A DNA stretch of 56,657 bases. Origin: Plasmodiophora brassicae (Eukaryota). Both the position numbers and the translations under genes were made by a program. Positions 3,352 to 56,657 of this stretch are shown piece by piece (the first letter of the stretch is position 1; each line of letters starts with the position of its first letter). The stretch covers positions 1,488,001 through 1,544,657 of the forward strand of contig CP145413.1 in assembly GCA_036867785.1 (NCBI GenBank), written 5' to 3'. The notes below the pieces were generated by a model that searched no databases, was not told the origin of the DNA, and worked only from the letters and a program-made list of their open reading frames with translations.

Positions 3352-4392
3352 TCACGTATTGTGTATGGGATGGAGAACGGATCGGCCAGCGACGCGTTGC
3401 AGCATGCGACGAAGGGCGGTGACGGATCGCGCGTCGTTGAATTGCAGGCGGCCGTCCTGGCAGACGATCCAGGTCGGCGCAGGGCTGTGCCAGAACGGGT
3501 CGTAGATCACCAGGTTGTCGTTGAGCAATGCGGCGACGTACGAGAACGAGCTGTGCGCCATGACCAGGACGTCGGCCATGACCAGGGCGTGCACCGTCGC
3601 GAACGTGTCCGTGTCGAGGTGCAGGACCGGGTCCAGGGCGTCCAGATCCGTAAAGTCGGCCGGCGCCCCGCTCGAGTACACGTTCAGCCGGACGGGCATT
3701 GCCGTCCGCGCCCTGATCGCGTCGACCAGCACGACGAGCTTGTCCCGCGTGGCGCCGTTGCTGATGATGCGCCTCTGGTCGGCGTCGCTGGCGCCGTACC
3801 CCCGCCGAATGTGAACGGCGATGTTGACCGCGTCGGCGGCGAACTCGGGCAGCGCCGGCTTGGCCGTCGCCAGGTACTTGCGACGCAGCTCTGGGCGCGC
3901 CAGGTCGATCGCGAACGGGTGCGCGTCGACGTAGTTGACCGACGCCTCCCCGTCGATGACGTCAACGGCGACGCCGCCGGGCAGGTCGTCGCGGTGGATC
4001 TCGCCGTCGCCCAGGTTGAAGAAGTCGACGACGCGGGCGGTGTCGGCGCCCCACTCGATGGTGTTCGGGACGCCGCCGAACACGTACGGGCGGCCCGTCG
4101 CCGTGCGCTCGATGAAGTTCGCCATGTACCGTTGCATGGTGGATCCCAGGCCGCCCCACAGGACCGGGCCGACCACGTTCATCCCATCCGGGAACGTCAC
4201 CGACGCGTAGTCGTCCGCAGGCGACCTGGTGATCAGCAGCCCGTCGGGCGTGGCGGGGCGACCGTGCGCCGTCGTCTGCTGGTACAGGACGGCCCGCCCG
4301 ACCGGGTGCACCGTCATGACGGAGGCCAGCGCTAGCAGGACGTACACCGCGATGGCGACAGCGGAGCACCTGGTCCACCGCGACGACGACAT
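3352..4392 (-). CDS. Putative fucosyltransferase-fold glycosyltransferase
   Basis: Signal anchor, GGLGS motif, donor-binding IAVHIRRG, and ADVLVMAHSSFSYVAALL, all typical of the GT11/GT23/NodZ-like superfamily. Confidence 0.6.
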   Translation of the reverse strand: MSSSRWTRCSAVAIAVYVLLALASVMTVHPVGRAVLYQQTTAHGRPATPDGLLITRSPADDYASVTFPDGMNVVGPVLWGGLGSTMQRYMANFIERTATGRPYVFGGVPNTIEWGADTARVVDFFNLGDGEIHRDDLPGGVAVDVIDGEASVNYVDAHPFAIDLARPELRRKYLATAKPALPEFAADAVNIAVHIRRGYGASDADQRRIISNGATRDKLVVLVDAIRARTAMPVRLNVYSSGAPADFTDLDALDPVLHLDTDTFATVHALVMADVLVMAHSSFSYVAALLNDNLVIYDPFWHSPAPTWIVCQDGRLQFNDARSVTALRRMLQRVAGRSVLHPIHNT

Positions 4393-11023: not shown

Positions 11024-11220
11024 TGTTCATCCAGAGTACCAGTACTCAGATGATGCTGCTCAGATGCTGCTGCCACCCGGTCACATGATCATGACCGTAC
11101 TCGACCCCGCAGCGGCCCTTGCTGTGACGATCCTGTCCAAATACATCAGTTCGTTATATCACCAGGCGCCGACTCTTGCGACCGACCGCCCCCGTAGTGG
11201 GCAGCGGCGGCGTTAGCACA
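11024..11220 (+). repeat. 5' LTR
   Basis: TGTTCATCC...GTTAGCACA, apparently identical to 16163-16359. Confidence 0.97.
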
Positions 11221-11263
11221 GAAGCTTCTTGCGCAAAGAGCCCCAAGCAAACGAACTCACTTA

Positions 11264-14200
11264 ATGGCAGGAGGTGGCCGCAGAGCGCCCGTTCGTCTAC
11301 AGATGGAGGACGACGCCAGGACCAACTCCGACGCCGAGGCCAAGGAGCATGAATCGTCGACAGATGACGAAATCGATCGAGGGCTTCAGTCAACAAACCT
11401 GCACGGTAAGAGCCCGATCTTTATGCCTTTGAAACCGCCCATCCTACGTACCCTGAGCCTTACGGCCAAGGACGGAATTAACGATTTCCTCAAGAAATAT
11501 AGGAAACACGTCGAGATCGTTAACGAGCGCCGACTGATCTACAAGGAGGATATTCATCCGCCAACGGTGAAGTCATGCATTACCGAGGACGTCCTCAAAG
11601 GGATGTCGAAATATCGCCTACGTCAACCCGCCAGCACGATCACGGATGGCGACATCATGAGCTACTTGAGGTCAGTCCAACGCAGGGAGGCTGATGTCGA
11701 GAGTTCGACAGACATCAAGGCGCTTCTCACGAAGACAGTGGTCATGAACCTGTCAATCAAGAGTATTGAGGAACGTGTCACGTCTTTCTTCGCCAAGTTC
11801 GATGAGCTAATCGACGACTATGGGCTACAAGACACATACGCCAAAGGAACGAAAGGAACCAAGCGCAAGATCAAGGTATTACGCGGAGGTATCCGTCCCA
11901 CTGACCTTGCGGTTCTAGTCGAACGCGCGATCGAGTTCGGAGGGTGCAGGGACGCTGAGAAGGACGAGCTCAAATTCTTCGACCTCGTCGACCGTCTTGC
12001 CAAAGAGCAGGACAAACACTTCCGGCTGCAAGCTGAGAAGAAGAAGTCTCCAGCGCAGACCATGTCCCCACCTGCAGGTAAGAAAGGTAAGGACGTTGTT
12101 GCTCCGAATAGGAATGGCGGCAAGCATCCGACAAATCCGATCGGACTGAAGACAGCTCAATCGTCCACATCGCAAACGAAAGACGAATCGAGGGACATCC
12201 CCGAGCACATCCGAAAACGTTTCGAAGGTAAGGATCCTCCAAAGGCAGGTTGCCTAATCTGCAAGGAGCAGCACTGGGTCCAAGTGTGCCCGAAGGCAAC
12301 TCAAGGAGAACGCAAAGCTGCCATTGAAAAGTTCCAGAAAGAGCGCAAAGAGAAGGAGGAGAGTAAGGGCAACGCAGACACGGCAAAGCGCATGGGCCCG
12401 CCGTCGCCGTCAACACCGTCCCCTATGAGACTTCGCTTCCAGAACTCGCTCGACCTTCCATTCGAAGCCGATAGTGGTGCGACGAAGACCGTCATTTCGC
12501 AATCGCAACTGCTACGGATTCAAGCCATCCAGCATGTCCCAGTCAAAGTGTTCGACCATCCAACGGAGGCGAAACTTGCAACGATCGGGGCTACGACAAC
12601 AATTGTCGCCACAGCGATCGTGGACATCACCATTGTCCCACCTTCGCATGGCAAACCTGCACATCTACGCGGGCGGGAAATCAACGTATGTCGCGAAGAC
12701 CTATCTGATGACATTGTCCTTTTAGGAGCCCCGGAACTGGACGCGTTGGGTATCAATCCAGCTACACAACTGAAGGAGATGTTAATCGAGGCAAATGGTC
12801 CTATCATCATCGAAGCGGATCCGACCCCGGAACGTCACGCCCCAGGTGGTCAAGGGATCACGATGAGAGCGGTAAGACACCCGGAGGTAAGTGGAACAAC
12901 TCGCGATCATGAGCCCCAATTGGACACCAATGATCCGGGTGACGACTATGATGTCGAAATCGGAGAACACTCCGATACAGACGTGGACAGGGCAATAGAC
13001 CGGATGATACAACGTGCAACTGACTCCGGTTTCCCTAACGATCAAGTCCCGCGTCTACGCACAACTGTCAATCGACACAAAGACATATGGCGAACGAAGC
13101 TTGGCCGTGATCCACCTGCGAAAGTAAGTCCACTGAAACTACACTTCAAAGCAGATGCTCGTCCTGTTCGTTGCCGAACACGAAGGTATACCCTCGAACA
13201 TCAAAAATTCATGGATGATCACGTAGGAACCTTGGCGGAAAACGATTTTGTGTACCGCAATCCGCACAGCAGGTACGCGTCGCCGTGTCTGGTCGTCGAC
13301 AAGAAGGACACGGAGGTTCGCGGCCATCGGCTGACCGTCGACATCAATGAAGCCGTCAACAAACAGACCGAACGCATTGCATGGCCGATGCCTCACATCG
13401 ACATCATCCTGACCTACCTACGTTCCGCGACCATCTTCATGCTGTTCGATGCCTTTAAAGGCTATTGGCAATTTCCGTTGCACCCTGATTCGCAGGAGGC
13501 CTGCTCGTTCATGACACACATCGCCACGTTCACACCCAGGCGCATCATCCAGGGAATTGCTGATTGCGTGTTTGCGTTCCAGGCGGGAATGCAACAGGTG
13601 TTGGGGAAACTTCTATATATCTGCGCCCTACTCTGGATCGACGATATCCTCGGCTACGTATCTGGATTCGGAGCCTACATGGACACACTCGAATCTCTTC
13701 TCAACGCTTTCGACGAGTTTGGAGTTAAACTCAACCCTGATCGCTGCCAGTTATATCTCACTTCAGTGACATGGTGCGGTCGCGTTATATCCGCTGATGG
13801 AGTGTCGTTCGATCGCTCGTATCTCAACGCCTTGCACGATCTATCAACTCCTATCACGGCTGCTGATCTCCAACAGTTCCTCTCGGGCCTCAATTGGGTC
13901 CGTTCTGTTATCCCTCAATTCGCGGCACATGTTCATCCGCTACAGGATCTACTTCTGTCCGCTTCTCGTTCTGTCAGCAGTCTGAAGAAATCACACCTAC
14001 GTCGAGTTCGTTTAGCCGACATCGGCTGGACCACTGACCATCTCACCAGTTTCAATTCTCTGAAGCATCGACTATCGGAGGCCATGACGCTGGCGCACAC
14101 CAAGGACGAATGGATCATGTGTCTCTTTCCGGATGCGAGTGACCGTTTCTGGTCTGTTTTCCTGTCGCAGATCCCTCCGGAAGATATTGATCTCCCGTAC

Positions 14201-16153
14201 GGTGAGCAACACCACGAACCTTTGTCGTTCATCTCGGGGACATTCCGTGGTTCTCAATTGAAGTGGGCGACCATTGAGAAGGAGGCCTACGCCATCATTG
14301 AAGGCTGCTATCGCCTCAGACACTTCATCTCTATGTCAAAGCTGGCACTTCGAATCTTCACAGACCACCGTAATTTGGTTTTCATTCTGAACCCAGCCTC
14401 GGTTGCACGAATTAGTCGGACGACCGGCGATCGCTTGGAGCGCTGGCGACTTCAGATTATCGACCTAGATTTTCACATTGAGCACATTGCTGGGGAGGAC
14501 AACGTTTGGGCCGACCTCGCCACGCGGTGGGGCGTCGCCCTGCAACCACTCTCCTCATTTTCCCCTCCATCGTTCCGTTCTATTCGTCATATGGCAATTA
14601 ATCTTGACTTCGACGATTACAAGATGACCGATGAGTTTATCTGGCCGTCTGTCGACGAGATTAGTAACGCTCAGACCGACTACATTCGCCAACACGACCT
14701 ATCTGCCGTTTCCGATATTCTCCAACTCGAAGGGGACATGTCTCTCCACCTTAGCCCGGAATCTGGCTGGCGTACTCCAGACAATCAACTCTGGGTACCA
14801 TCACATGCACTGCAGCTACGCATCGCAGTGATTTCACATATGGGACTGTCTGGTCATCAACCTGCTGCATCGACTATTTCGAGCATCGCACAACTCTTCT
14901 GGTGGCCTGATCTGGATTCCTTTGTTCGTGCATTTGTGGACAAATGCTTACACTGCCTACGCAACAAAGATTCGATGATTCCCCGACCTTTTGGCACGGC
15001 TATGCATGCGGACAAGCCCAATAAGGTCATCCACTATGACTTTCTGTTCTTATCCAAACCTCGTCCAGGCGATTCTCATCAACTTCGTTATGTTCTGGTT
15101 CTGAAGGACGACGCCACGGCATTCGTCGAGTTAATTCCTTGTCAATTCGCGGATCACAGCGTTGTCGCCGAATCTCTTCTGGATTGGTTCAAACGTTTCG
15201 GCATTGTTTTCCAACATGTCTCTGACCGCGGCACACACTTCAAAAACGCGGTTATCGCCGAGCTTAATAGCCGGTTACACTGCAACCATCATTTCACAAC
15301 TGCCTACACACCTTGGGCGAACGGCACGGTTGAGGTTGTCAACAAGCGGCTTCTCTTCCTGCTGAAGTCCCTCCTCTCCGAGCTAAATCTTCCATTCCAG
15401 GATTGGCCGTATGTCCTTCCGCTGATCAACATGACGGTAAATCACACTGTTCGATCAAGTGTGGGCTACGCGCCTGTCACGATGTTTACGGGTTTGCCAC
15501 CCTCGACACCTATCTCGATTATCTTCAACAAACGCATCGACGCGGTTATCGACGTGCCGTTGACCCCTGACCGTCTCAAGGAAATGACGACGGAACTTAT
15601 CGATTCTCTCGAGGACATGCACAAAGCAGTGGCACGTACACGCACCCATCTACGTGATCTCAAGCAACGCGCCCGGCGTCGCCGACGCAATGTTCGCGAG
15701 ATCAACTTCACGACGGGCGACTATGTTCTCGTGGCCAACCATGGCAAGCACTCCAAGTCCGAGTACAACTGGACTGGACCTGCCCAGATTATCGACACCA
15801 TCAACGACTGGGTGTATCGAGTTCGAGATCTCTTGACTGATCGTATCTCAGATGTACACGCCCAGCGCTTAATGTTCTATGCAGATGCGCACTTGAATGT
15901 CACCTCTTCCCTGAAGCACAACATCGCGCTCACCGGCGTGGCTTACCAAGTCAACGCAGTCGAGGACATTCGAGTCAATTCTACGTCAGGTGACACTGAA
16001 CTACTGATCAACTGGATCGGATTCGATGCCACCGACAATTCATGGGAACCTTACTCGGTCATGGCGGCCGATGTTCCTGATATCGTCAGGGCCTTCCTCG
16101 AACGACACGCCGAAGGAGACTCGCTCTGCTCACGACTGTTAGCAGATTTCTAA
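11264..16153 (+). CDS. Gag-Pol polyprotein (Zn knuckle, protease, RT, RNase H, integrase, chromodomain)
   Basis: CLICKEQHWVQVC knuckle, ADSGA protease, FDAFKGYWQ and LWIDD in RT, DAS/EKE/TDH in RNase H, HHCC plus SDRGTHF integrase, and C-terminal LINWIGFDATDNSWEP chromodomain. Domain order PR-RT-RH-IN. Confidence 0.97.
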   Translation: MAGGGRRAPVRLQMEDDARTNSDAEAKEHESSTDDEIDRGLQSTNLHGKSPIFMPLKPPILRTLSLTAKDGINDFLKKYRKHVEIVNERRLIYKEDIHPPTVKSCITEDVLKGMSKYRLRQPASTITDGDIMSYLRSVQRREADVESSTDIKALLTKTVVMNLSIKSIEERVTSFFAKFDELIDDYGLQDTYAKGTKGTKRKIKVLRGGIRPTDLAVLVERAIEFGGCRDAEKDELKFFDLVDRLAKEQDKHFRLQAEKKKSPAQTMSPPAGKKGKDVVAPNRNGGKHPTNPIGLKTAQSSTSQTKDESRDIPEHIRKRFEGKDPPKAGCLICKEQHWVQVCPKATQGERKAAIEKFQKERKEKEESKGNADTAKRMGPPSPSTPSPMRLRFQNSLDLPFEADSGATKTVISQSQLLRIQAIQHVPVKVFDHPTEAKLATIGATTTIVATAIVDITIVPPSHGKPAHLRGREINVCREDLSDDIVLLGAPELDALGINPATQLKEMLIEANGPIIIEADPTPERHAPGGQGITMRAVRHPEVSGTTRDHEPQLDTNDPGDDYDVEIGEHSDTDVDRAIDRMIQRATDSGFPNDQVPRLRTTVNRHKDIWRTKLGRDPPAKVSPLKLHFKADARPVRCRTRRYTLEHQKFMDDHVGTLAENDFVYRNPHSRYASPCLVVDKKDTEVRGHRLTVDINEAVNKQTERIAWPMPHIDIILTYLRSATIFMLFDAFKGYWQFPLHPDSQEACSFMTHIATFTPRRIIQGIADCVFAFQAGMQQVLGKLLYICALLWIDDILGYVSGFGAYMDTLESLLNAFDEFGVKLNPDRCQLYLTSVTWCGRVISADGVSFDRSYLNALHDLSTPITAADLQQFLSGLNWVRSVIPQFAAHVHPLQDLLLSASRSVSSLKKSHLRRVRLADIGWTTDHLTSFNSLKHRLSEAMTLAHTKDEWIMCLFPDASDRFWSVFLSQIPPEDIDLPYGEQHHEPLSFISGTFRGSQLKWATIEKEAYAIIEGCYRLRHFISMSKLALRIFTDHRNLVFILNPASVARISRTTGDRLERWRLQIIDLDFHIEHIAGEDNVWADLATRWGVALQPLSSFSPPSFRSIRHMAINLDFDDYKMTDEFIWPSVDEISNAQTDYIRQHDLSAVSDILQLEGDMSLHLSPESGWRTPDNQLWVPSHALQLRIAVISHMGLSGHQPAASTISSIAQLFWWPDLDSFVRAFVDKCLHCLRNKDSMIPRPFGTAMHADKPNKVIHYDFLFLSKPRPGDSHQLRYVLVLKDDATAFVELIPCQFADHSVVAESLLDWFKRFGIVFQHVSDRGTHFKNAVIAELNSRLHCNHHFTTAYTPWANGTVEVVNKRLLFLLKSLLSELNLPFQDWPYVLPLINMTVNHTVRSSVGYAPVTMFTGLPPSTPISIIFNKRIDAVIDVPLTPDRLKEMTTELIDSLEDMHKAVARTRTHLRDLKQRARRRRRNVREINFTTGDYVLVANHGKHSKSEYNWTGPAQIIDTINDWVYRVRDLLTDRISDVHAQRLMFYADAHLNVTSSLKHNIALTGVAYQVNAVEDIRVNSTSGDTELLINWIGFDATDNSWEPYSVMAADVPDIVRAFLERHAEGDSLCSRLLADF

Positions 16154-43107: not shown

Positions 43108-45755
43108 AACTTCTATTTGTATTTGTCAGATACAGCTAAAGCGTCGTGAGCTCGGCGGGAACGGACGTGAATAGGACAGGCTTGACTCGAGTGACAGGAT
43201 CGGCGGAGTGCGCAGCGTTCACGGCGGGCGCCATGAACGCGCGCGGCGCTCTATGTCGGCCGCACTGTGCCCGTCTAATGGCGACTGGACACGGCCGGGC
43301 GACGATGCAGGCGACGGCGCGTCGGGGCGCAGCGGCACACGAGCTTCATGCTGGGGTCCAGCGTCGGCTTCCGCCGGTCGCCCGGTCGCGTTGGCAATAC
43401 ATCTCATCACGATGGCCGTCATTATCGCCGTCGGCGAGAGATGGTGGGCGCGTCGACGAACTCGGGCATCGGCATCGATCTCTGGGCCGGCTATGTCCGC
43501 ACCGCCCAGGAACCCGACCAGTGCAGGGTCGTCGAGGACGTGTTCGGCGACTTCAACGGCGACTCGCGCGTTCTCGTTGTCCTCATCGTCGCTGATCTCG
43601 TTCCATAGCGTCGCGTCCAGGCCAGCAAGCGCAGCGACGCCCTGAGCGGAGATGGCGAGCGACTCGCCGCGGATGCAGCGGGCGGCAACGGCGCGGATGA
43701 ACGTGCCCAGGACGGCCAGCCAGCGTCGCTGGCGATCGCTCAGCCGAAACGTCGGGTCGCGCGGATCCGGCATGCGGCGCGGTCGTAGACGGTCGTCTTC
43801 TCTGGCGGGCGGCGCCGTCAGGCGTGCGTAATCGTTGAGCTGGATGGCGACGTAGTCGATGGCGACGCCCGTGTCCGCCCTGTTGAAGTGCAAGGCACGG
43901 ATGCGCCAGTCGATGATTGGCCTGAGCAGGCGCGACGATTCAGTGCAACGGGCAGCAATGTGATACCTCGAGAGGTTCTTGTCGTTGCACGCCCGGCACT
44001 GGGCGTTCGAGCCCGGTATGCGGTTCGTGACCCATGAAGCCACCGCATATGCGTCGTCGCCCGAGTGGTACGCCGCCGGAAACGGGAGGTTATACGGCTG
44101 TAGCTGCAGGCGCATCAGCTTGCAGGACGCATCAGCGGCAGCCCACGTGTGGAGCTCGAGCGCTTGCAGCAGGGCGTCTTGCCGATCGGGCAGGCGTGGG
44201 CGCTTCCGCGTCGGGCGGCCGGCTTCGGCGTCGGCGAGTTCTTCACGGGCGCGTTGCTCGCGGGCGTCACGGCCGTTCCTGTAGATGGCGGTTGCGTCCG
44301 CGTAGACCTTGCAGCCCTTCAGCATCATGTTGAATCGGCTGCGCGGGTTGCTGAGCGCCCAGCGCGTGACGCGGACCAGGAACGGGACGCGATCGCCATC
44401 CTTGATCTGCTCCGACCACGTGATCTGCTTGAACGCGAACCGGGCGCGCAGCTTGGCCTGGCGGGCAGCGGCGGGCACGAGTCCCGCGTACCGGAGCATC
44501 AGGGACGAGCCGATGCGGCGGCGGTATCCACCGAAGAACAGGGCGGCGGCCGACTTCTGCAGCTGGTCGAGCTTCTTCAGTAGGCCGACGTGGCTGTTGC
44601 TGATGGCGAGTCCGTACTCGGCGCGCGAACGGATCCAGGCGCCGACGACGCGCGTCTTCCGGACGATCGACAGGTGCTTCGTGCTGAACACGCCCGAGTG
44701 CATGATCCCGATCATGGCCTTCTCGGCTTTGGCTGTCCGCGAGGCGAGCTGGGCTCGATGATCGAGGCGACCATCCTTCATGACGACGCCCAGGAAGCAC
44801 ACCGGCTTGTCGAGCTCGTGCTCCTCGACGACGCGGTTGCCGCCGATGGTCAGGGCTGCCGGCTGCGCGGCGGTCGACGTCCTCGGCCTGGAGACGATCG
44901 ATTTCGTCGCGTTCCACTCGAGTTCGTGCCGCTGCGCGTACTCCTGACAGAGGTCCATCATGGCCTGGGCCATCTGGTCGGTGAAGGCGTGCAGCAGGGT
45001 GTCGTCGGCGTAGAACTGGCAGGGCACCGGCATGTGGTCGAACATCGGGGCCTCGTCGCCGAACCGCGACACGATCAGGTACGGCAGGTCGTCGATCAGG
45101 ACGTTGAATAAGTCAGGGGAGCCAATCGCGCCCTGGAATAGGCCGACGAGCGCGGCGATCCGCTCGGACAGCTGCCCGTCCAGAGCAATGATGAAATGGC
45201 AGCCGTCAAACAAGGCCTGCAGAACGGCGATGATATGTGCAGGTACGCCTCGTCTGCGTAGCTTTGAGTAGACATGAATGCGGCGGGCGCTATCATACGC
45301 CTTCCTCATGTCGAGGAGGACCTCGATCAGCGGCTTGCGTCGTGCCGCCCAGTGGGTGGTCAGCTCGTCGGCCACCCACACGGCTTCGGGGACACCGATG
45401 CCTCGCCGAAATCCAAACTGGAGGAAGTGCATCTGCAGCCACCCCTTCAGGTGCATGTACGTGATCAGACACGTCTCATATGCCTTCCGGAGGTGGGACT
45501 GCAGCGCAATGCCTCGCCAGTTCGACGGGTCGGCGGGTTCGGTGTTCCGTTTGTGCACGGGCACAACGAGCGCCGACCGCCAGTCAGACGGCACGAGCTG
45601 CACAGTGTACAAGCAGGTGAACATGCAGGATATCCAGGGGCCGGCGGCATCCGGGTCACACTTCAGGAGGTCCATCGGTATGTTGTCCGGGCCGACCCCC
45701 TTCATCCACTCATGCCGTTTGATGAGTTGACGGTGTGAACACGGTGTCCGATACC
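43108..45755 (-). mobile_element. 5'-truncated non-LTR retrotransposon
   Basis: RT ORF plus about 110 nt of 3' UTR, no poly(A), with telomere-like sequence on both sides. Confidence 0.85.
43219..45705 (-). CDS. Non-LTR reverse transcriptase with C-terminal CCHC knuckle (N-terminally truncated)
   Basis: KGVGPDNI, NWRGIAL, QFGFR, LDMRKAYDS, GLFQGAIGSP, catalytic FYADD, FLGV and CRACNDKNLSRYHIAARC. Confidence 0.92.
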   Translation of the reverse strand: MKGVGPDNIPMDLLKCDPDAAGPWISCMFTCLYTVQLVPSDWRSALVVPVHKRNTEPADPSNWRGIALQSHLRKAYETCLITYMHLKGWLQMHFLQFGFRRGIGVPEAVWVADELTTHWAARRKPLIEVLLDMRKAYDSARRIHVYSKLRRRGVPAHIIAVLQALFDGCHFIIALDGQLSERIAALVGLFQGAIGSPDLFNVLIDDLPYLIVSRFGDEAPMFDHMPVPCQFYADDTLLHAFTDQMAQAMMDLCQEYAQRHELEWNATKSIVSRPRTSTAAQPAALTIGGNRVVEEHELDKPVCFLGVVMKDGRLDHRAQLASRTAKAEKAMIGIMHSGVFSTKHLSIVRKTRVVGAWIRSRAEYGLAISNSHVGLLKKLDQLQKSAAALFFGGYRRRIGSSLMLRYAGLVPAAARQAKLRARFAFKQITWSEQIKDGDRVPFLVRVTRWALSNPRSRFNMMLKGCKVYADATAIYRNGRDAREQRAREELADAEAGRPTRKRPRLPDRQDALLQALELHTWAAADASCKLMRLQLQPYNLPFPAAYHSGDDAYAVASWVTNRIPGSNAQCRACNDKNLSRYHIAARCTESSRLLRPIIDWRIRALHFNRADTGVAIDYVAIQLNDYARLTAPPAREDDRLRPRRMPDPRDPTFRLSDRQRRWLAVLGTFIRAVAARCIRGESLAISAQGVAALAGLDATLWNEISDDEDNENARVAVEVAEHVLDDPALVGFLGGADIAGPEIDADARVRRRAHHLSPTAIMTAIVMRCIANATGRPAEADAGPQHEARVPLRPDAPSPASSPGRVQSPLDGHSAADIERRARSWRPP

Positions 45756-45801
45756 TTTAGGGAATGATTTAGGGGGGGTGGGGGGGGGTCCAAAATGGAC
45801 C
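45756..45801 (+). repeat. Telomere-like/G-rich junction with hairpin
   Basis: TTTAGGG AATGA TTTAGGG, then G-runs, then the GGTCCA-AAA-TGGACC inverted repeat. Confidence 0.6.
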
Positions 45802-49726: not shown

Positions 49727-51221
49727 TTATGAACGGATACCATTGCATCTGTAGAAGAGCAGCCTGTAGACGCGCTTGTGGAGCAGGCTAGCCACTTGGG
49801 ACTCTCCATACCGCACTAGGCGATTGGTGTCGCAGAAGACCCAGGAACCACCGGGTTGCTTGACCCAGGATATATAATGCCCTTCATCGTGCCCAGCCAA
49901 TTGGGTGTCACTACCCTGGTAATCGACCAGGCCAACGAGATCGAAGTACGCTCTGCCAGTCTGAAACGTCACTTCTGGCACCACGTCCTGCCCACAGGAG
50001 ATATCAGACATCCAAGAGATCCACCCATCATCATCGCTTGATGTCCTGCACCTACCACCGTGGTCCTACGACGCGCCATGCTGATCTGCGCTCCGTCAGG
50101 GCCGGGTTGCTGGACGATCTCCATCGGATCCTGCCGAACAATCAACAGTGACCCCGGCGTTGGACTCCTGGCCATGTGGCGGAACGTTGTCGACCGGTGC
50201 TCGACATCGTGACCAGGTTGGCAGGGAACGTTGGAGGTGCACCTCCTGGTGATCGTCTCCGACTGCTCCCCGACCAGAACCGTTGAGAGTTTGACTCGCC
50301 GGTGGCAGCCCTGCAGCATGACGACGGGCTGCTGACAAGGCGGGCGCGACGAGGCATGGCCGCAGGTGGCACACGTATCAACCACGTGTTCGACGAACTC
50401 GACGAGACTGCCAACAATCGGCTGTCCATCAGCGCCCACCATACGGTATGCCTCCATCTGCGATAGCAGTTCCAGGACGAAGTCGTCTGCGTCGTGCTGA
50501 TGTCCGGCAGGAAACGACCGTGTCGCCCGGTCGGCGTTGCCCAGGCTGCTGATGAGCTCAACGAGCGCGTACGACGCCACGTTCGCATCCAGGCGGGGGT
50601 TCATCACCTGGTTGAACAGGCCCACCCAGGGCGCGTCGCCCGACACGCGGTGCCATCCAGGCAAACGACGCAGGATATGGACCGGTGCAATGGCGAAGCA
50701 AATCTGCCGGCAGACGCCGGCCGCATCCACGTTCGATATGCCCGCTGGAAGTAGCGTGTCAGCACCACACTCCTGAACGTCAACTTCAGCAGCGTCGATG
50801 ACAATTGGATCGCGTTTCGTACCTGCGCAGGAGGTTCCGACCCTTGGGCGGGATCGCTGTGGGCGATTCGTTCGGTGCGGCTCGAACGGTCGACAGCAGG
50901 TCGTTCGTGGACCTGCAGTTATTGCACGCATGTCAGCTGTCTCCCTCGCCACAGTACCGGCGTTGGCAATTGGCAAACCTGTCTGCGCTTCCTCGCTGGG
51001 CGTTTCGCGAGGAGAGCCACTTGAACCCTCCTCCGCTTGCAAGTAAGCTTGGGTGCCTGCAATGTCACGGGGGTTCAGTCTACACCCCGCTCGCAATACC
51101 TTCTAACCCAAATCACCCTGTACTCCGACGACCTGGAGGACGACTCGCAAACGTCGTTCGTGTCCTGGGACGGTGCGTCGCTGTCGTCGTCGCTCGACAT
51201 CGGGTCCACATCCATCGTACT
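49727..51221 (-). CDS. Ubiquitin-specific protease-like (peptidase C19) domain, spliced
   Basis: Cys box GISN...QICFAIA, QHDADDF, CATC Zn ligands and His box GHYISWVK..W..CD. The GTAGGT..CAG intron at 49988-50055 joins the two ORFs in frame. Confidence 0.8.
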
Positions 51222-51241
51222 CTGTTCAGGCCCACAGTGGA

Positions 51242-54200
51242 TCAGCAGGATTGCACAATCAAGGCGAATATCATCAGTACACGTACAGTTCGTCGGCACC
51301 TGATTGCCGACCGGTTCTGCAGTAGTGCTGCCCGCCGACTGGTTACTGTCCTGCGTACGGGGCGGCGCTCGTCACCGGCGTCGTCTCCTGCACCGCCGTC
51401 CTCAGATCCGTTGGCACCGGCAACGTCGATGCCGCTTCGCCGCCTTCGGACGGCGTCCAGGTACATCGGCACAAGCCGGGCAACGAGCGACGCGATCCGC
51501 TCAACGACGACATCGTTCTGGCGCCTCGACGTCAGGACGATGAGTTCGATCGCCACCAGCAAGACGTCGTAGGTGTGCTTCGTCGCGCACCAGACCTCGT
51601 TGAGCTTGGCGCCGACAGCGCCGATCAGCATGAGTTCGTGGGCGAAGTCGTCCCACTCAACCGCGCCTGCGTCCAGCGACCTGAGGACCGCCGACATGTC
51701 GACGACGTGGTCATCGCCGTCCCGCTCGTCAGCGTTCCTCTTCTCACCCACGTACGTCAACACTCGTCGACCGAGGCCGCGCGCATGGAAGATCATAAGG
51801 ATGATCCTCTGCTGCAGGCCCCACTTGGACAGGTCCACGGGTGACGGCCACAGACCAGACACGCTCTTGACGAGTTTGCTGACCTGCGTCGACATCTGCC
51901 GGGGCGACTTCGACAGTTCAATCGTGTCGTCGACGCAGGGCCTCTGAACCAGCACCGCGTTGTGTGGATCGCCCAGGAACCCGTCCCAATCGACCAAGAC
52001 CGGGGTGCCTTTCCCGTCCTTCCTCGAATGCATCACGCCCATGATCAGGGCCATGGCTTCCCACGGCCAATGCCGGCGATGCTTGTTCCCGTGGAAGGCG
52101 GACGGCAGCGGCAGCTCCGCCCACGACCCTTGAGCCTGCGCCAGGGTGACCGACCGCGACGACAGCGGGACCTTGCTGATCTGCAGCGATCCAGCTGACG
52201 TCAACGGTACGATCAGGTCGGGATCACAGAGTGGCGGGACCAGCATGACGACCTGCTGGAGGATGTTCTTGAACTCGGCGGTAGGCACCCATCGACCCGC
52301 CGGACGCTGGCGCAGTGCACGACGCTGGGCCGGGCTGCTGTCGCCGGACGCCATGAGCATGCGGAGATAGGCGTCGGTGACTCGCTCCGGAGGCGCATCA
52401 ACAAGGACGACGGGAGGATGTACGACACGGCCATCCCAGCGTAGACGCAACGACACGTGAATGACATCACGCCCCAGGGCTCGGCGCCTGCCTTGTACCC
52501 TCGTCACCAACGCGCGCATGACGTCGGCCTCTCGGAAACGACTAAGCGGCACGATGGACATGACGTCACGCCAGAGCGCTACGTGCGGCAGCGTGTCCAC
52601 GCCGGGCGACATCCAATTGAATGCCACCCACTCGGCGAACGTGATGTGTTGCATCGACGCGACTGAGGGGTCCAGCACGGATCCAGGGCTCGCCAGGCGA
52701 TGCAGGGCGGCCGGTGACGGAAGGAACGACTTGAACAGATAGTCGTAGTCCTGGTCGAGGTCTGGGCGATCAAGCGCATGGCTGACGTACGGCGCGAGGA
52801 CCTTCCTGGACCGCAGCTGGTCGAACGCGTACGCGCCCTCTGTCTGAAGCAGGTTGAGCGCCACAGCGGCTGGCGTCAACATGTCCGAGAGCATCGACGA
52901 TAACGTTCGAAACCAGGAGCGGACCAGGTAGGTCAACGCATGCCGGCACCCCTTAACCGAAATCCGAAGGATCGTCGACATCACGTCGGCGTTGTCGAAC
53001 CCATGGATAAAGTTCAGGAACTGGCCCTCGTGAATGCGCAGGTTTAAGGGGTCCATGAAAGCTGGATCGATGAACACCCTGCCGGCCGACATGCAGAAAT
53101 TGACGTAATCCAGGCGCGTCCCGGGCGACATCCACACGCCGACATTGCTGTCAGGGGTACCGCCCTGGAAGAACCGGCTTGCCGAGATGAACGAACCGTC
53201 GAGCAGTGCGTTCAGCAGGTCCTCCATGAACTGCAGGCAGTTCATCTGCCGCCGATCAATGTTCGTGACGAACGGTGATCGGCGCCCGCCCTCGATGGGT
53301 CGGAACATGGCCCGATACATCAGACGGGGGAAGTGGGCGTACTGCTCATGTTTCCGCAGAAGATGGGCCCAGAAGTCGTGCGCCGCGATGCACAGGATCG
53401 TGTCGTCGTCGTTCAGGTGGGCAACTTCGCGCCACATCGACTGGAACACAGCGCCGCGCATCGACAGGTTTGCGATGTACTCGCAGCGGTGAACGACGGG
53501 GACCCTTTCGCGCATCATCTGGCGGCACCATCGTATTCTCTGCGTCATCGACCTGTGAACCGGCTTGAGGGCTCGCTTCACGTCCGTCTTGCGGATCGGC
53601 CCGTACTTCCTCAGAGACCGCGGCAACGAAGCGATGAATTTACGAGTGTTACCGCGATCGAAAGACGCCCGCACACAGGCGCTGAATGTGGCCAGGTGCG
53701 AGTAGCGCACAGGCGCCGCCAGTATTCGTGATCGATCTCTTGTGCGTTGAGACACTGTCGCATTGTACGCTGATCTCGCTGAAGCCATTGTCGAGCCGCA
53801 CCGCGTTTTACATCCCCCAAACGCGGCAACCTCACCGATCGGGTAATAGGAGTGGGATCGCGCAGGAGCGCCGCGGTTGGCGTCTCGGTCGCGTAGAGCG
53901 CTGTAGTCGCGACAGACGGCCACAGGTGTCTGATCCGGAAACGGCTCAGCGGCCACGTTGCTGCCAATGTCAAACCGGCCGCAGTCAACGATCGCGGTCG
54001 GCCAGAACGTTCGGAGGTAGTGGCGCTGCTCCAGGATCGAGCCGACGTTGTCCATCCTCGTAAATGATCGAACGCCCAACGATTGCATCAGAACCATCGT
54101 CGAGTCCTGCAGGTACAATGCCAGTGTGTCCAGCATGGTTCGCGCGTCTCGCGGCGCGAACCGTACAGGACGCTTGTGGTTGTTGTACTGCTGGCTGTAG

Positions 54201-55174
54201 TCGACGAGTTCGTCGGGAAGTCGATCAGAGCACGCGGCGATGGCCTCGCTGACTGCGGCGCGGCAGGAACTGGAGAAGCCGCGTCGTGTCGAGTGACGAC
54301 TCGTACTCACCAGGAACAACGTGATCGTGGCCATTGGCGAGCAATACACTTCACCGAGGAGGAACATGGGAAACTTGGTTATCGGCGTTGGACGCGGTTC
54401 GCCTTCCAGCTGCACCCGAAGGTCGTGAAATGTGCTCCCGTTGACCGCTTGGCGGCCAGCGTGCCGTCCCCAGGCTGTCATCAAGTGCAGCGACGTGAAC
54501 GCCGTTGCCCTCTCGAGCGGGAAGACCTGAAGCCATCGCTGGAACGACGTACAAATGGCCTGAAGCGAATCGACGTCCATGGTCTGGAGAATGTCGGGCA
54601 CGCCGCCATGCCTCTCAGACGCTGCGCGTGCCTCGGCTGAAACATCGAAGCGGTACTTGCCAGAGAAGCAGTCGGCTTTCGGTAGCCCATGCTGTGTCCA
54701 GAACAGGTCACCAGCGAAGTCTTGCAGACTAATCGTCTCAAACGCGCTGCAGTCAGTATGCGGTTGGCTTCCCCTTGTCAACTGCTTTTCTTCCGATTCA
54801 GCCAAGAGGGCGAAGGACGGATCCGCGCCATAAGGGTTACCTAACCCGACCTGGCCGTCATCGGACGCAGCAGCATCGTCTTCCGAAGAAACCGTGCCAG
54901 ATGAGTCCGACGAAGGCGCTCCATCGCGGTCGTCATCACCTTGAGCGGTGGCCCTCCTTGAATTGTCTTCAGGTACGCGGACGCTGCCACCAGCGTCGTC
55001 ACCGTCTTCCGCTTCGACATCGACTTCGTCGGCTGCGGCCAGCTTCTGCCGTTCCCGGATATCGCGAAGATAATCAAACGTTGTTCGCGAGAAGGAGTCG
55101 GAACTAACAGCATCATCGTCGCTGTCTCGGTTCGTGTTGCACAGGCCGACGGGAACCCCGGAAGAGTCACACAT
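51242..55174 (-). CDS. 1310-aa protein of unknown function
   Basis: Long uninterrupted ORF with an acidic N-terminus. Its coding status is supported by amino-acid-level conservation with the paralog at 41.3-43.1 kb. Confidence 0.8.
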   Translation of the reverse strand: MCDSSGVPVGLCNTNRDSDDDAVSSDSFSRTTFDYLRDIRERQKLAAADEVDVEAEDGDDAGGSVRVPEDNSRRATAQGDDDRDGAPSSDSSGTVSSEDDAAASDDGQVGLGNPYGADPSFALLAESEEKQLTRGSQPHTDCSAFETISLQDFAGDLFWTQHGLPKADCFSGKYRFDVSAEARAASERHGGVPDILQTMDVDSLQAICTSFQRWLQVFPLERATAFTSLHLMTAWGRHAGRQAVNGSTFHDLRVQLEGEPRPTPITKFPMFLLGEVYCSPMATITLFLVSTSRHSTRRGFSSSCRAAVSEAIAACSDRLPDELVDYSQQYNNHKRPVRFAPRDARTMLDTLALYLQDSTMVLMQSLGVRSFTRMDNVGSILEQRHYLRTFWPTAIVDCGRFDIGSNVAAEPFPDQTPVAVCRDYSALRDRDANRGAPARSHSYYPIGEVAAFGGCKTRCGSTMASARSAYNATVSQRTRDRSRILAAPVRYSHLATFSACVRASFDRGNTRKFIASLPRSLRKYGPIRKTDVKRALKPVHRSMTQRIRWCRQMMRERVPVVHRCEYIANLSMRGAVFQSMWREVAHLNDDDTILCIAAHDFWAHLLRKHEQYAHFPRLMYRAMFRPIEGGRRSPFVTNIDRRQMNCLQFMEDLLNALLDGSFISASRFFQGGTPDSNVGVWMSPGTRLDYVNFCMSAGRVFIDPAFMDPLNLRIHEGQFLNFIHGFDNADVMSTILRISVKGCRHALTYLVRSWFRTLSSMLSDMLTPAAVALNLLQTEGAYAFDQLRSRKVLAPYVSHALDRPDLDQDYDYLFKSFLPSPAALHRLASPGSVLDPSVASMQHITFAEWVAFNWMSPGVDTLPHVALWRDVMSIVPLSRFREADVMRALVTRVQGRRRALGRDVIHVSLRLRWDGRVVHPPVVLVDAPPERVTDAYLRMLMASGDSSPAQRRALRQRPAGRWVPTAEFKNILQQVVMLVPPLCDPDLIVPLTSAGSLQISKVPLSSRSVTLAQAQGSWAELPLPSAFHGNKHRRHWPWEAMALIMGVMHSRKDGKGTPVLVDWDGFLGDPHNAVLVQRPCVDDTIELSKSPRQMSTQVSKLVKSVSGLWPSPVDLSKWGLQQRIILMIFHARGLGRRVLTYVGEKRNADERDGDDHVVDMSAVLRSLDAGAVEWDDFAHELMLIGAVGAKLNEVWCATKHTYDVLLVAIELIVLTSRRQNDVVVERIASLVARLVPMYLDAVRRRRSGIDVAGANGSEDGGAGDDAGDERRPVRRTVTSRRAALLQNRSAIRCRRTVRVLMIFALIVQSC

Positions 55175-55175
55175 C

Positions 55176-55219
55176 AGGTTTTTTAGGGTTTTTTAGGTTA
55201 GGGTTAGGGTTTTAGGGTT
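55176..55219 (+). repeat. Interstitial variant telomeric tract
   Basis: AGG T6AGGG T6AGG TTAGGG TTAGGG T4AGGG TT, with the same polarity as the terminal telomere. Confidence 0.93.
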
Positions 55220-55225
55220 CGTTCG

Positions 55226-55369
55226 TCGGCATGCCCAACGCGACCACGACCAGGAATGGCGGACACCCGCGCACTGCGGCGAGCTGCATGGTGCAGCTCC
55301 TTATGTCCCACCACCCCTTGGCGGCCCTGGTTTCGCCTTCGGCTCATCAGGTTATCGCGTTGGTGCCGT
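55226..55369 (-). ncRNA. Type I hammerhead ribozyme
   Basis: Stem I CCAACGCGAUAAC/GUGGUCGCGUUGG, core CUGAUGA (55350-55344), stem II GCC-GAA-GGC, GAAA, stem III CCAGG/CCUGG, cleavage triplet GUC (55250-55248). Confidence 0.88.
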
Positions 55370-56384
55370 CCCGGCGAATGTTGTCATTCCCGGGCTTTTC
55401 CCTGCCGGACCTGTGCGTCCTTTCGGTGAATGTCATCCCATCGGCGGCGTGATGCGGCCGTGGGGTATCAACTGATTTAACATCATTGGATTGTCGATTG
55501 CAGCGTGGGCGGCCGCCTGCCCTGCTGTATTTGCCATTAATTATGCGTTTGCACGCGCTGTTGGCTATGTCGATCGTTGATCTGCCTCTTGCGGCAGTCA
55601 GCGTCGTGTTATATTTGTCTAGGACGTGCTGGAAATTCGTTTGCAAGAAGTTCCATCGTGTGTCGGCGCCTCTGTGGGGCCGCACACTGAAGAAGTTCGT
55701 GCTGATCTTCTCCGTCTTTTCCATTAGCCATGCTCGGTCTGTGAACTGATATGGCGTTTTCGATCTGATGATCTTACTGGAGTATCCACGTCTCCTTAGT
55801 TGCTTCCTGAATTTCCCCATTTCTGCAATGAAGGTCTTTCTATCCGCGGTCCCTCGCAGGATGCGAATATTCTCTCCAGTAATCCACGAACATTTCGTTA
55901 GCTCTGGCTTGAATGTCGTGTAGTGGTTGAAGCATTTGTTATTCGTTGGCTTAGTGTATGGTTTGAAATCCAGTAAGCCGAGCGTAGCGTAACGGCGTCC
56001 TTTGTAGATGGTGAGATCTAGAAAGTTCACTGTGCTCCCCATTTGTTCGATGTTGAACTGCAGTGTGCCGTACGATGATAGGTGTCTGGTGAGTGCTTTC
56101 ACCTTCGCTATCTTTTCAGTGGCAATGATTGTGTCGTCTCTGTACCGGCGGTACAGGTATGGCTTGAGGTGGGGGTGCTTCCTCCATGCTTCCTCTTCCA
56201 TTGCTGCCACGACTAGGTCGGCAAAGACGCCTGAGACGTTGCTTCCCATGGCGGCGCCTTGCACCTGTTTGTACCAGGTGTCGCCGTATACGAAGTAGTT
56301 GTTCTGTAGTACCCATTGTAGGACGTCTAGTATGAGTTTGTGGCACGGGATGTGCCCTCGTTCGAGCAGTGGTTCGATGAGTTC
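55347..56384 (-). CDS. Penelope-like reverse transcriptase (partial, open at the 5' end)
   Basis: The frame extends upstream of the listed ORF (LQWVLQNNYFVYGDTWYKQVQGAAMGS). It includes catalytic YRRYRDD, NFLDLTI, PYTKPT and the thumb motif LRRRGYS. Confidence 0.92.
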   Translation of the reverse strand, partial: ELIEPLLERGHIPCHKLILDVLQWVLQNNYFVYGDTWYKQVQGAAMGSNVSGVFADLVVAAMEEEAWRKHPHLKPYLYRRYRDDTIIATEKIAKVKALTRHLSSYGTLQFNIEQMGSTVNFLDLTIYKGRRYATLGLLDFKPYTKPTNNKCFNHYTTFKPELTKCSWITGENIRILRGTADRKTFIAEMGKFRKQLRRRGYSSKIIRSKTPYQFTDRAWLMEKTEKISTNFFSVRPHRGADTRWNFLQTNFQHVLDKYNTTLTAARGRSTIDIANSACKRIINGKYSRAGGRPRCNRQSNDVKSVDTPRPHHAADGMTFTERTHRSGREKPGNDNIRRDGTNAIT

Positions 56385-56657
56385 TTAGGGCTTAGGGTTT
56401 TTAGGGTTAGGGTTTTAGGGTTTTTTTAGGGCTTAGGGTTTTTTTAGGGTTTTTTAGGGCTTAGGGTTTTTTAGGGTTTTTTAGGGTTTTAGGGTTTTAG
56501 GGTTTTAGGGTTTTAGGGTTTTAGGGTTTTAGGGTTTTAGGGTTTTAGGGTTTTAGGGTTTTAGGGTTTTAGGGTTTTAGGGTTTTAGGGTTTTAGGGTT
56601 TTAGGGTTTTAGGGTTTTAGGGTTTTAGGGTTTTAGGGTTTTAGGGTTTTAGGGTTT
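56385..56657 (+). repeat. Telomere (TTTTAGGG)n with proximal variant repeats
   Basis: Variant T2-7AGGG and CTTAGGG units to about 56486, then regular TTTTAGGG to the end of the window. Confidence 0.98.

Follow-up and report, generated by a model that had tools for sequence, protein, structure and literature searches.

The stretch of DNA analysed here (the window) comprises 56,657 nucleotides (nt) of contig CP145413.1, deposited under Plasmodiophora brassicae, has a GC content of about 0.6, and ends in a telomere. Directly inside this telomere, and reading away from the tip on the minus strand, lies the remnant of a Penelope-like element (PLE): a truncated reverse transcriptase (RT) frame, a predicted hammerhead ribozyme, a short spacer and a second, interstitial tract of telomeric repeats, on the far side of which an orphan gene is broken off. 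We interpret the remnant as a 5'-truncated endonuclease-less (EN-) PLE of the Athena/Coprina kind that makes up the final 1.2 kb of unique DNA on this chromosome, and we put the probability of this reading at roughly 85%.

The RT frame (55347..56384, minus strand) encodes 345 amino acids (aa). It is stop-free and open at its 5' end, where it abuts the first telomeric unit at 56384/56385, and it reads inward. The cut falls between RT motifs A and B: the frame begins 11 aa past motif A and retains motif B (QGAAMGS), motif C (RYRDD), the thumb and a C-terminal tail, with the signatures NNYF..Y.Q..GAAMGS, RYRDD, Y.KPT and RGY. A first-pass annotation, made from the letters alone, had named a PLE-type RT on the strength of such motifs and had described it as cut in mid-RT, fused to the telomere at 56384/56385 and reading away from the tip; the motifs are present and the fusion is visible in the sequence. 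Pfam returned a weak RVT_1 match alone (E = 0.1), and a PDB sequence search with the frame gave no matches at E ≤ 10. The identity of the frame emerged from comparison with its relatives: in a tblastn search, residues 578–867 of an 867-aa relative (P0001) matched 56381–55506 with 48% identity (E = 2.5e-81), from which it follows that the window copy keeps the C-terminal third of the protein alone. The frame aligns with all ten of the relatives P0001–P0010 across RT motifs B–E and the thumb. By tblastn, the window holds one PLE copy.

Longer copies are present in the same organism, which identifies the window copy as truncated. One of them is P0011, a Logan-derived protein that matches the window frame at 100% identity and has 11 more N-terminal residues, which run into RT motif A; a search for shorter proteins yielded no further fragments from the same organism and only one relative, 47% identical. 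We also compared the window with contigs from four other public sequencing runs, including X6, X12 and X14; these comprised 407 pieces and 69 loose ends beyond those listed, and neither contig depth nor uncovered parts were given weight as evidence. A 2187-nt contig of X6 matches 55800–56384 and then continues for 1602 letters past 56384. The stretch is present in runs of one organism label, from several studies, and in runs labelled 'plant metagenome'. Being truncated and without the first catalytic aspartate, the window copy is dead.

At the end of the coding frame lies a type-I hammerhead ribozyme motif (55236..55362, minus strand) with a complete core and a large helix III, located by eye and by script. 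The TGA stop of the RT frame falls within the CUGAUGA box and leaves the box intact. Helix I is paired at 11 of 12 positions, helix II consists of 3 bp with a GAA loop and is followed by GAAA, and helix III, 7 bp long, encloses a structured insert of ~67 nt; cleavage is predicted after the triplet GUC, between 55248 and 55247. This is the sole CUGAUGA...GAAA motif with a helix II of at least 3 bp that the script found on either strand of the window, and an unconstrained fold of 148 nt retains helices I and II (z = −3.7 against shuffles). The same hammerhead core stands at the ORF (open reading frame) end in all five related element copies found on four metagenome contigs (L001–L004), with a minimal helix III. 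In two relatives, P0004 and P0012, the predicted proteins read in frame through the core, where the CUGAUGAG...GAAAC boxes appear as the peptide PDEAKSET; conservation of the ribozyme sequence thus extends across the family even where it is annotated as coding.

A spacer of 16 nt (55220..55235, minus strand) separates helix I of the hammerhead from reverse-complement telomeric repeats, which begin 28 nt from the predicted cleavage site. These repeats form the interstitial telomeric tract (55178..55219), whose G-strand lies on the plus strand and reads T6AGGG, T6AGG, two units of TTAGGG, and TTTTAGGG. On the sense strand of the element they are C-strand repeats, running from 55219 to 55178 after its 3' end, as the first-pass annotation had stated when it placed that end on CCCTAA-type repeats. 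In our reading, the tract is the old chromosome end bearing the attached element.

The terminal telomere (56385..56657, plus strand) occupies the last 273 bases of the window, and its G-rich strand runs 5' to 3' toward the window end, with the polarity of a real chromosome end. Its base consists of 94 nt of irregular units (56385–56478: TTAGGGC, TTAGGG and T5-7AGGG), followed at 56479–56654 by 22 perfect TTTTAGGG units, counted as 21 overlapping exact matches of the 16-nt double unit; the double unit had no match in 100 dinucleotide shuffles of the window. Tandem Repeats Finder (TRF) reported a period of 8 and 32.1 copies over 56392–56657. A regular-expression scan of both strands of the window found just two telomere-like tracts, the terminal and the interstitial one, both with the G-strand on the plus strand and bracketing the element exactly.

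Irregular units (T6-7AGGG, TTAGGG, TTAGGGC) are common to 56385–56478 and 55178–55219, where they stand before, or in place of, regular TTTTAGGG; they may stem from telomerase stutter, element-templated repeats or homopolymer sequencing error. Their occurrence at both telomere bases fits the 'TTTTAGGG-like' motifs at chromosome ends noted in a 2026 assembly paper (PMC13547706). T4AG3 telomeres have been reported for Plasmodiophora brassicae (Rhizaria), Chlamydomonas and Theileria (PMC6823432; PMC11191646). With a GC content of about 0.6, short introns and the labels of the runs that contain the stretch, they make a rhizarian plant pathogen a reasonable guess for the host, which is probably at least a plant-associated protist with T4AG3 telomeres; the first-pass suggestion of a rhizarian lineage is thus plausible. 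The regular T4AG3 repeats at the tip itself imply that a telomerase-type activity is also present.

The four metagenome contigs that encode family members (L001–L004) reveal what intact elements look like: units of 3.2–3.7 kb with one ORF. On L003, a full element (ORF 118–2982) terminates with a 113-nt direct repeat of the leader at its 5' end and is followed by (CCCTAAA(A))n at 3841–3891 and then by a second element, arranged head-to-tail and 39% identical to the first. The frame of this second element opens within the repeats and matches the first element from residue 247 onward, which marks it as a 5'-truncated, capped copy. L004, whose terminal direct repeats likewise measure 113 nt, ends in 60 nt of CCCTAAA(A) repeats after the same 3' end as L003, and L001 carries a short CCCTAAA tract inside a 126-nt direct repeat that is found at both contig ends, 3228 nt apart. 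We further observed that a G-strand-like tract on L003 (3032–3057) and one on L004 (2997–3024) are 86–92% complementary to the C-strand repeats downstream (3860–3885 and 3803–3861, respectively), possibly reflecting long-range RNA pairing or the trace of an inverted insertion. Nothing resembling this G-strand-like tract follows the hammerhead of the window copy.

GIY-YIG, the endonuclease motif of other PLEs, was not found in the window ORF, whose C-terminus is complete and natural. The nearest relatives, P0001–P0006, share 44–48% identity with the window frame, measure 623–938 aa and all come from metagenomic or Logan contigs. Those that are full-length are proteins of 867–938 aa, joined by single ORFs of 954–982 aa on L001, L003 and L004, and carry a DKN/DKG motif upstream of the RT (ADKNAGLT/ADKGAGLT), a region that the window copy has lost through truncation. 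More distant proteins, P0007–P0010 (28–34% identity), have a homologous RT core, thumb and DKN region, and P0007, P0009 and P0010 carry a GIY-YIG of the PLE type, in which two cysteines stand between GIY and YIG, a PLE-specific trait according to PMC8557442.

A GIY-YIG/CCHH expression matched four of the 160 stored proteins (P0009, P0010, P0113 and P0159) and none of the other 14 proteins of the window clade (P0001–6, P0012 and P0016–22). The N-terminal extensions of P0001, P0002, P0003, P0006 and L003 ORF1, 400–600 aa long, contained no GIY-YIG-like motif by expression; Pfam likewise placed no GIY-YIG in P0001, P0003, P0006 or L003 ORF1 and recognized the control P0010 weakly (E = 0.047), both methods being of limited sensitivity. 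At E ≤ 1e-3, a profile search of 1.84 billion cluster representatives recovered 24,265 relatives, and of the 150 top-ranking ones most end 205–330 aa past YxDD, which leaves no room for an endonuclease, versus 375–432 aa in the motif-bearing proteins. The first-pass claim that the element is endonuclease-less therefore holds for the window ORF and for its closest full-length relatives, in neither of which a GIY-YIG was found.

We built a maximum likelihood tree (LG+G4, with Shimodaira–Hasegawa-like approximate likelihood ratio, SH-aLRT, support) of 90 unnamed rows with no outgroup; 71 stored proteins were omitted, being unselected or having too little RT. The window family forms one clade of 15 rows (SH-aLRT 100), sister to 47 endonuclease-less rows (support 100). 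A branch with support 96 separates 84 endonuclease-less rows, made up of these two groups and 22 further rows, from five rows with the endonuclease motif and the motif-less P0093. By protein-language-model features, the Atlas clusters nearest P0001 are commonest in Rotifera, followed by Basidiomycota, which we treat as a lead only.

The window copy thus has the anatomy and polarity of an element whose 5' part is missing, bears a hammerhead-plus-repeat module at its 3' end, has no C-terminal endonuclease, and shares this layout with its relatives. The first-pass comparison with Athena and Coprina is strengthened by two features that it had not reported, namely the hammerhead and the 16-nt spacer leading from it to the reverse-complement repeats, and further by the closest full-length relatives, which show no GIY-YIG and form head-to-tail arrays with telomeric repeats.

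Inward of the interstitial tract, an orphan gene on the minus strand presents an open frame of 1316 aa (51242..55177) that is cut at 55177 and continues via small introns below 51287, to about 50000. The frame has no Pfam match and no usable ESM Atlas match. The introns, 50–66 nt long, appear in contigs of X13 and X14 as joints of the CT..AC type. In the four compared runs, the contig over ~54535–55177 runs on past 55177 into other DNA for 593–2316 letters, and the same 30-letter loose-end consensus at 55177 is listed for X6, X12 and X14; on the minus strand, these 30 letters place an ATG in frame with the gene, 9 nt ahead of the break point. In the window, then, the orphan gene breaks off right at its start, ~40 nt of telomeric repeats cap the break, and the element is attached to this cap. 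The intact version seen in other runs may be a paralogue; alternatively, it represents this locus in other isolates, in which case the chromosome end is a terminal deletion specific to the source isolate. Since the break at 55177 is joined first to telomeric repeats, a telomerase-type addition, and not the element, capped it. The proposal of the first-pass annotation that the family extends or heals telomeres is accordingly upheld as regards a telomere-attached element and finds no support as regards healing, the break having been sealed by telomeric repeats first.

From the published model of such elements we infer a history in which both pairing with the overhang and priming on it take part, in the following order. 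The chromosome would once have ended at 55177, within the 5' end of the orphan gene, capped by ~40 nt of telomeric repeats. An element RNA ending in the hammerhead fold, a short spacer and C-strand repeats could then have paired with the G-rich 3' overhang, and the overhang would have primed reverse transcription by the element's own RT, making an endonuclease unneeded. Copying would have halted, or the end would have eroded later, in the middle of the RT gene at 56384, and telomerase would then have added new T4AG3 repeats.

The outer junction lends itself to another explanation, namely that the element was already subtelomeric and that 56384 marks a breakage or erosion followed by telomerase healing; in the strong form, an internal insertion became terminal only later. 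The capped break in the orphan gene at 55177 is indeed an adjacent example of healing by telomeric repeats; the irregular units at the telomere base (56385–56478) fit de novo addition; and incomplete copying and later erosion cannot be separated by sequence alone. However, the telomeric tract beneath the element's 3' end has the right polarity and comes with a hammerhead-spacer-repeat module, a signature of terminal attachment and not of internal insertion. Moreover, a contig of X14 carries another copy in which the element 3' end (from 55207) meets a short telomeric tract and a flank that both differ from those of the window, which supports repeated attachment to chromosome ends, and relatives share the layout. 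We therefore consider this explanation unlikely, while its weak form, erosion after terminal attachment, is compatible with our preferred reading of an attached EN- PLE.

Subtelomeres commonly exchange sequence, and both the 3' part of the element and the neighbouring gene occur in more than one context in other runs. The terminal block of inner tract, element and telomere might thus have been copied from another chromosome end by recombination or break-induced replication, with no retrotransposition at this site. Against such a transfer, the inner tract joins a unique break point in the orphan gene, and the X14 junction with its different tract and flank points to separate attachment events. 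We regard a block transfer as quite unlikely; it would in any case leave the identity of the element unchanged.

Several observations weigh against the interpretation of the element as a telomere-attached EN- PLE. Among the pieces listed, contigs of the four runs bridge neither the junction at 56384/56385 nor that at 55177/55178. These contigs carry a longer element past 56384 and an intact gene past 55177 without the window junctions, and runs other than the possible sources contain 0.93–0.97 of the sampled words, as would be expected if a telomere-bearing read or contig had been misjoined to an internal element copy during assembly. We hold such an artefact to be very improbable: the polarity and structure of both junctions are those expected for a known class of elements, which a random misjoin would not produce, the gradient from irregular to regular repeats is typical of a real telomere base, and unrelated metagenome contigs display the same architecture. 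The silence of the runs is uninformative here, since short-read graph contigs break in telomeric repeats.

The 3' module raises further difficulties. A loose end of X12 at 55225 puts the element 3' end beside non-telomeric letters, so that telomeric repeats may be missing from the 3' end of at least one copy or relative. On L002–L004, a G-strand-like tract lies 14 nt past the hammerhead core and the C-strand repeats follow ~800 nt further on, indicating that the 3' module is not uniform across the family. The canonical hammerhead fold of 127 nt has a predicted energy of −57.0 kcal/mol, versus −64.1 kcal/mol for the minimum-free-energy fold, and a scan of 50000–56657 with Rfam models (E ≤ 1) returned no hammerhead and only a chance snoRNA match; the Rfam miss is probably owed to the long helix III. 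Cleavage in cis would sever the C-strand repeats from the coding RNA, a tension also present in the published model, and the predicted ribozyme fold may for this reason act as a structure or process read-through transcripts. Finally, an N-terminal endonuclease of the Naiad/Chlamys type appears to be excluded through the relatives and not through a full-length copy from the same genome.

Contig joints within the element skip 63 nt (55737–55799) and 68 nt (56089–56156), with GT..AG boundaries on the plus strand, antisense to the RT. The second of these introns begins with GTGAGT, and the sizes match the 50–66-nt introns of the neighbouring gene. One joint comes from run X14 (depth 4) and the other from X13 (depth 2); our guess is that both runs are RNA-like, given the spliced joints that they show in the neighbouring gene. 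None of the listed runs that contain the stretch is recorded as RNA. The joints suggest that spliced transcripts traverse the dead element toward the telomere. The plus strand, antisense and spliced, was considered as the coding strand of the element and rejected, as it has no long frame.

Elsewhere in the window, an 845-aa frame at 43219–45756 (minus strand) was considered as a second PLE copy and rejected, as no PLE query matches it by tblastn. Its clear RVT_1 match (E = 5.5e-19) marks it as an unclassified retroelement distinct from the PLE, and it shares its strand with the terminal genes. At 11198–16153 (plus strand), in a stretch of lower GC content (0.52–0.54 versus ~0.62), an unbroken frame encodes a 1651-aa Ty3/gypsy-type polyprotein with RVT_1, RNase H, integrase and chromodomain, probably a young chromovirus copy.

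The first-pass annotation had added that its author was not aware of such a family having been characterized in this lineage; a full-text search for Penelope with Plasmodiophora gave no relevant paper. The main texts of PMC6823432, PMC11191646 and PMC13547706 do not mention Penelope, retrotransposons or subtelomeres, and the term 'reverse transcriptase' is absent from the main texts of PMC6823432 and PMC13547706. Our literature search found no report of Coprina from a rhizarian host or from a protist host with T4AG3 telomeres. As a tentative idea that we would not yet favour, the window family could belong to a third deep clade of EN- PLEs beside Athena and Coprina, residing in rhizarian or other soil protists with T3-4AG3 telomeres. 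In a plant-pathogenic protist, such elements could be currently active and add themselves to ends made by gene-cutting terminal deletions, so that the tips of isolates would differ, with spliced antisense transcripts running telomereward.

Among mobile elements, EN- PLEs are the nearest relatives of telomerase, and they are the textbook case of retroelements that prime on chromosome ends. Their presence in a further supergroup would widen the known range and support their antiquity. The finding reveals no new mechanism. If the host is the clubroot organism, its compact genome (~25 Mb) and the telomere-to-telomere assemblies of several isolates would allow truncation points, turnover and end-to-end variation to be read directly. 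For genome annotators, the element explains the 'TTTTAGGG-like' irregular ends and unannotated ORFs at chromosome tips.

Among known systems, the window element bears a clear likeness to Coprina. Coprina elements have been reported from fungi and also from Selaginella, the diatom Phaeodactylum and the kuruma shrimp. In Ascochyta lentis, Coprina-1_Alen occupies 13 chromosome ends, at 12 of which telomeric repeats flank the copy on either side, and one ORF is typical of Coprina, as against two in Athena (PMC13159263). The window element similarly lacks an endonuclease, stands at the very end of the chromosome and has telomeric repeats on both sides; its full-length relatives encode an N-terminal extension, the DKN motif, RT and thumb in one long ORF, and L003 and L004 carry terminal direct repeats (113 nt). 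In the portions of PMC4209133 that treat these ribozymes, telomere-associated PLEs of fungi and protists have type-I hammerheads with a large helix III and without loop-loop contacts, which is also the type of the window hammerhead, with its large helix III, whereas the hammerheads of animal PLEs have a small palindromic helix III. The window family differs from Coprina in forming its own clade of 15 cluster representatives, in a tree without named references, and in its telomeric unit, TTTTAGGG.

With Athena and the Terminons, as portrayed in parts of PMC6431247 and PMC8557442, the element shares the 3' module of hammerhead, short spacer and reverse-complement telomeric repeats, the capped 5' truncation, the head-to-tail arrays and the orientation of the 3' end toward the centromere. 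Passages of PMC6431247 place the repeats of EN- PLEs directly downstream of the 3'-terminal hammerhead and describe copies 5'-truncated by telomeric repeats and head-to-tail arrays. Athena is described with two ORFs, and the Terminons as giant elements of up to 40 kb that carry accessory genes; the relatives here have one ORF in 3.2–3.7 kb. The hammerheads of rotifers, in the sources as excerpted, have a small palindromic helix III, while that of the window is large, and the repeats are of the (ACACCC)n type in rotifers and CCCTAAAA here.

Endonuclease-bearing (EN+) PLEs, comprising Penelope/Poseidon, Neptune, Nematis and Hydra as well as Naiad/Chlamys, have a homologous RT core, thumb and DKN region, as seen in P0007–P0010. 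They differ from the element described here in that the C-terminus of the window frame and both ends of its closest relatives are without GIY-YIG/CCHH, and in that the element is terminal on telomeric repeats and not internal. The hallmark of Naiad/Chlamys is an N-terminal GIY-YIG with a CxC link to the RT; the N-termini of P0001–3, P0006 and L003 ORF1 contain no such motif. In excerpted statements of PMC8557442, hammerheads occur in most PLE clades and TERT is the sister group of PLE RTs. TERT and the window element both extend a G-rich 3' end from an RNA template; the element differs in being mobile and copying its own mRNA. Overall, the element matches the published class of EN- PLEs feature for feature: the kind itself is known from rotifers, fungi, a diatom and a clubmoss, and what is new here is the host lineage and, possibly, a separate EN- clade.

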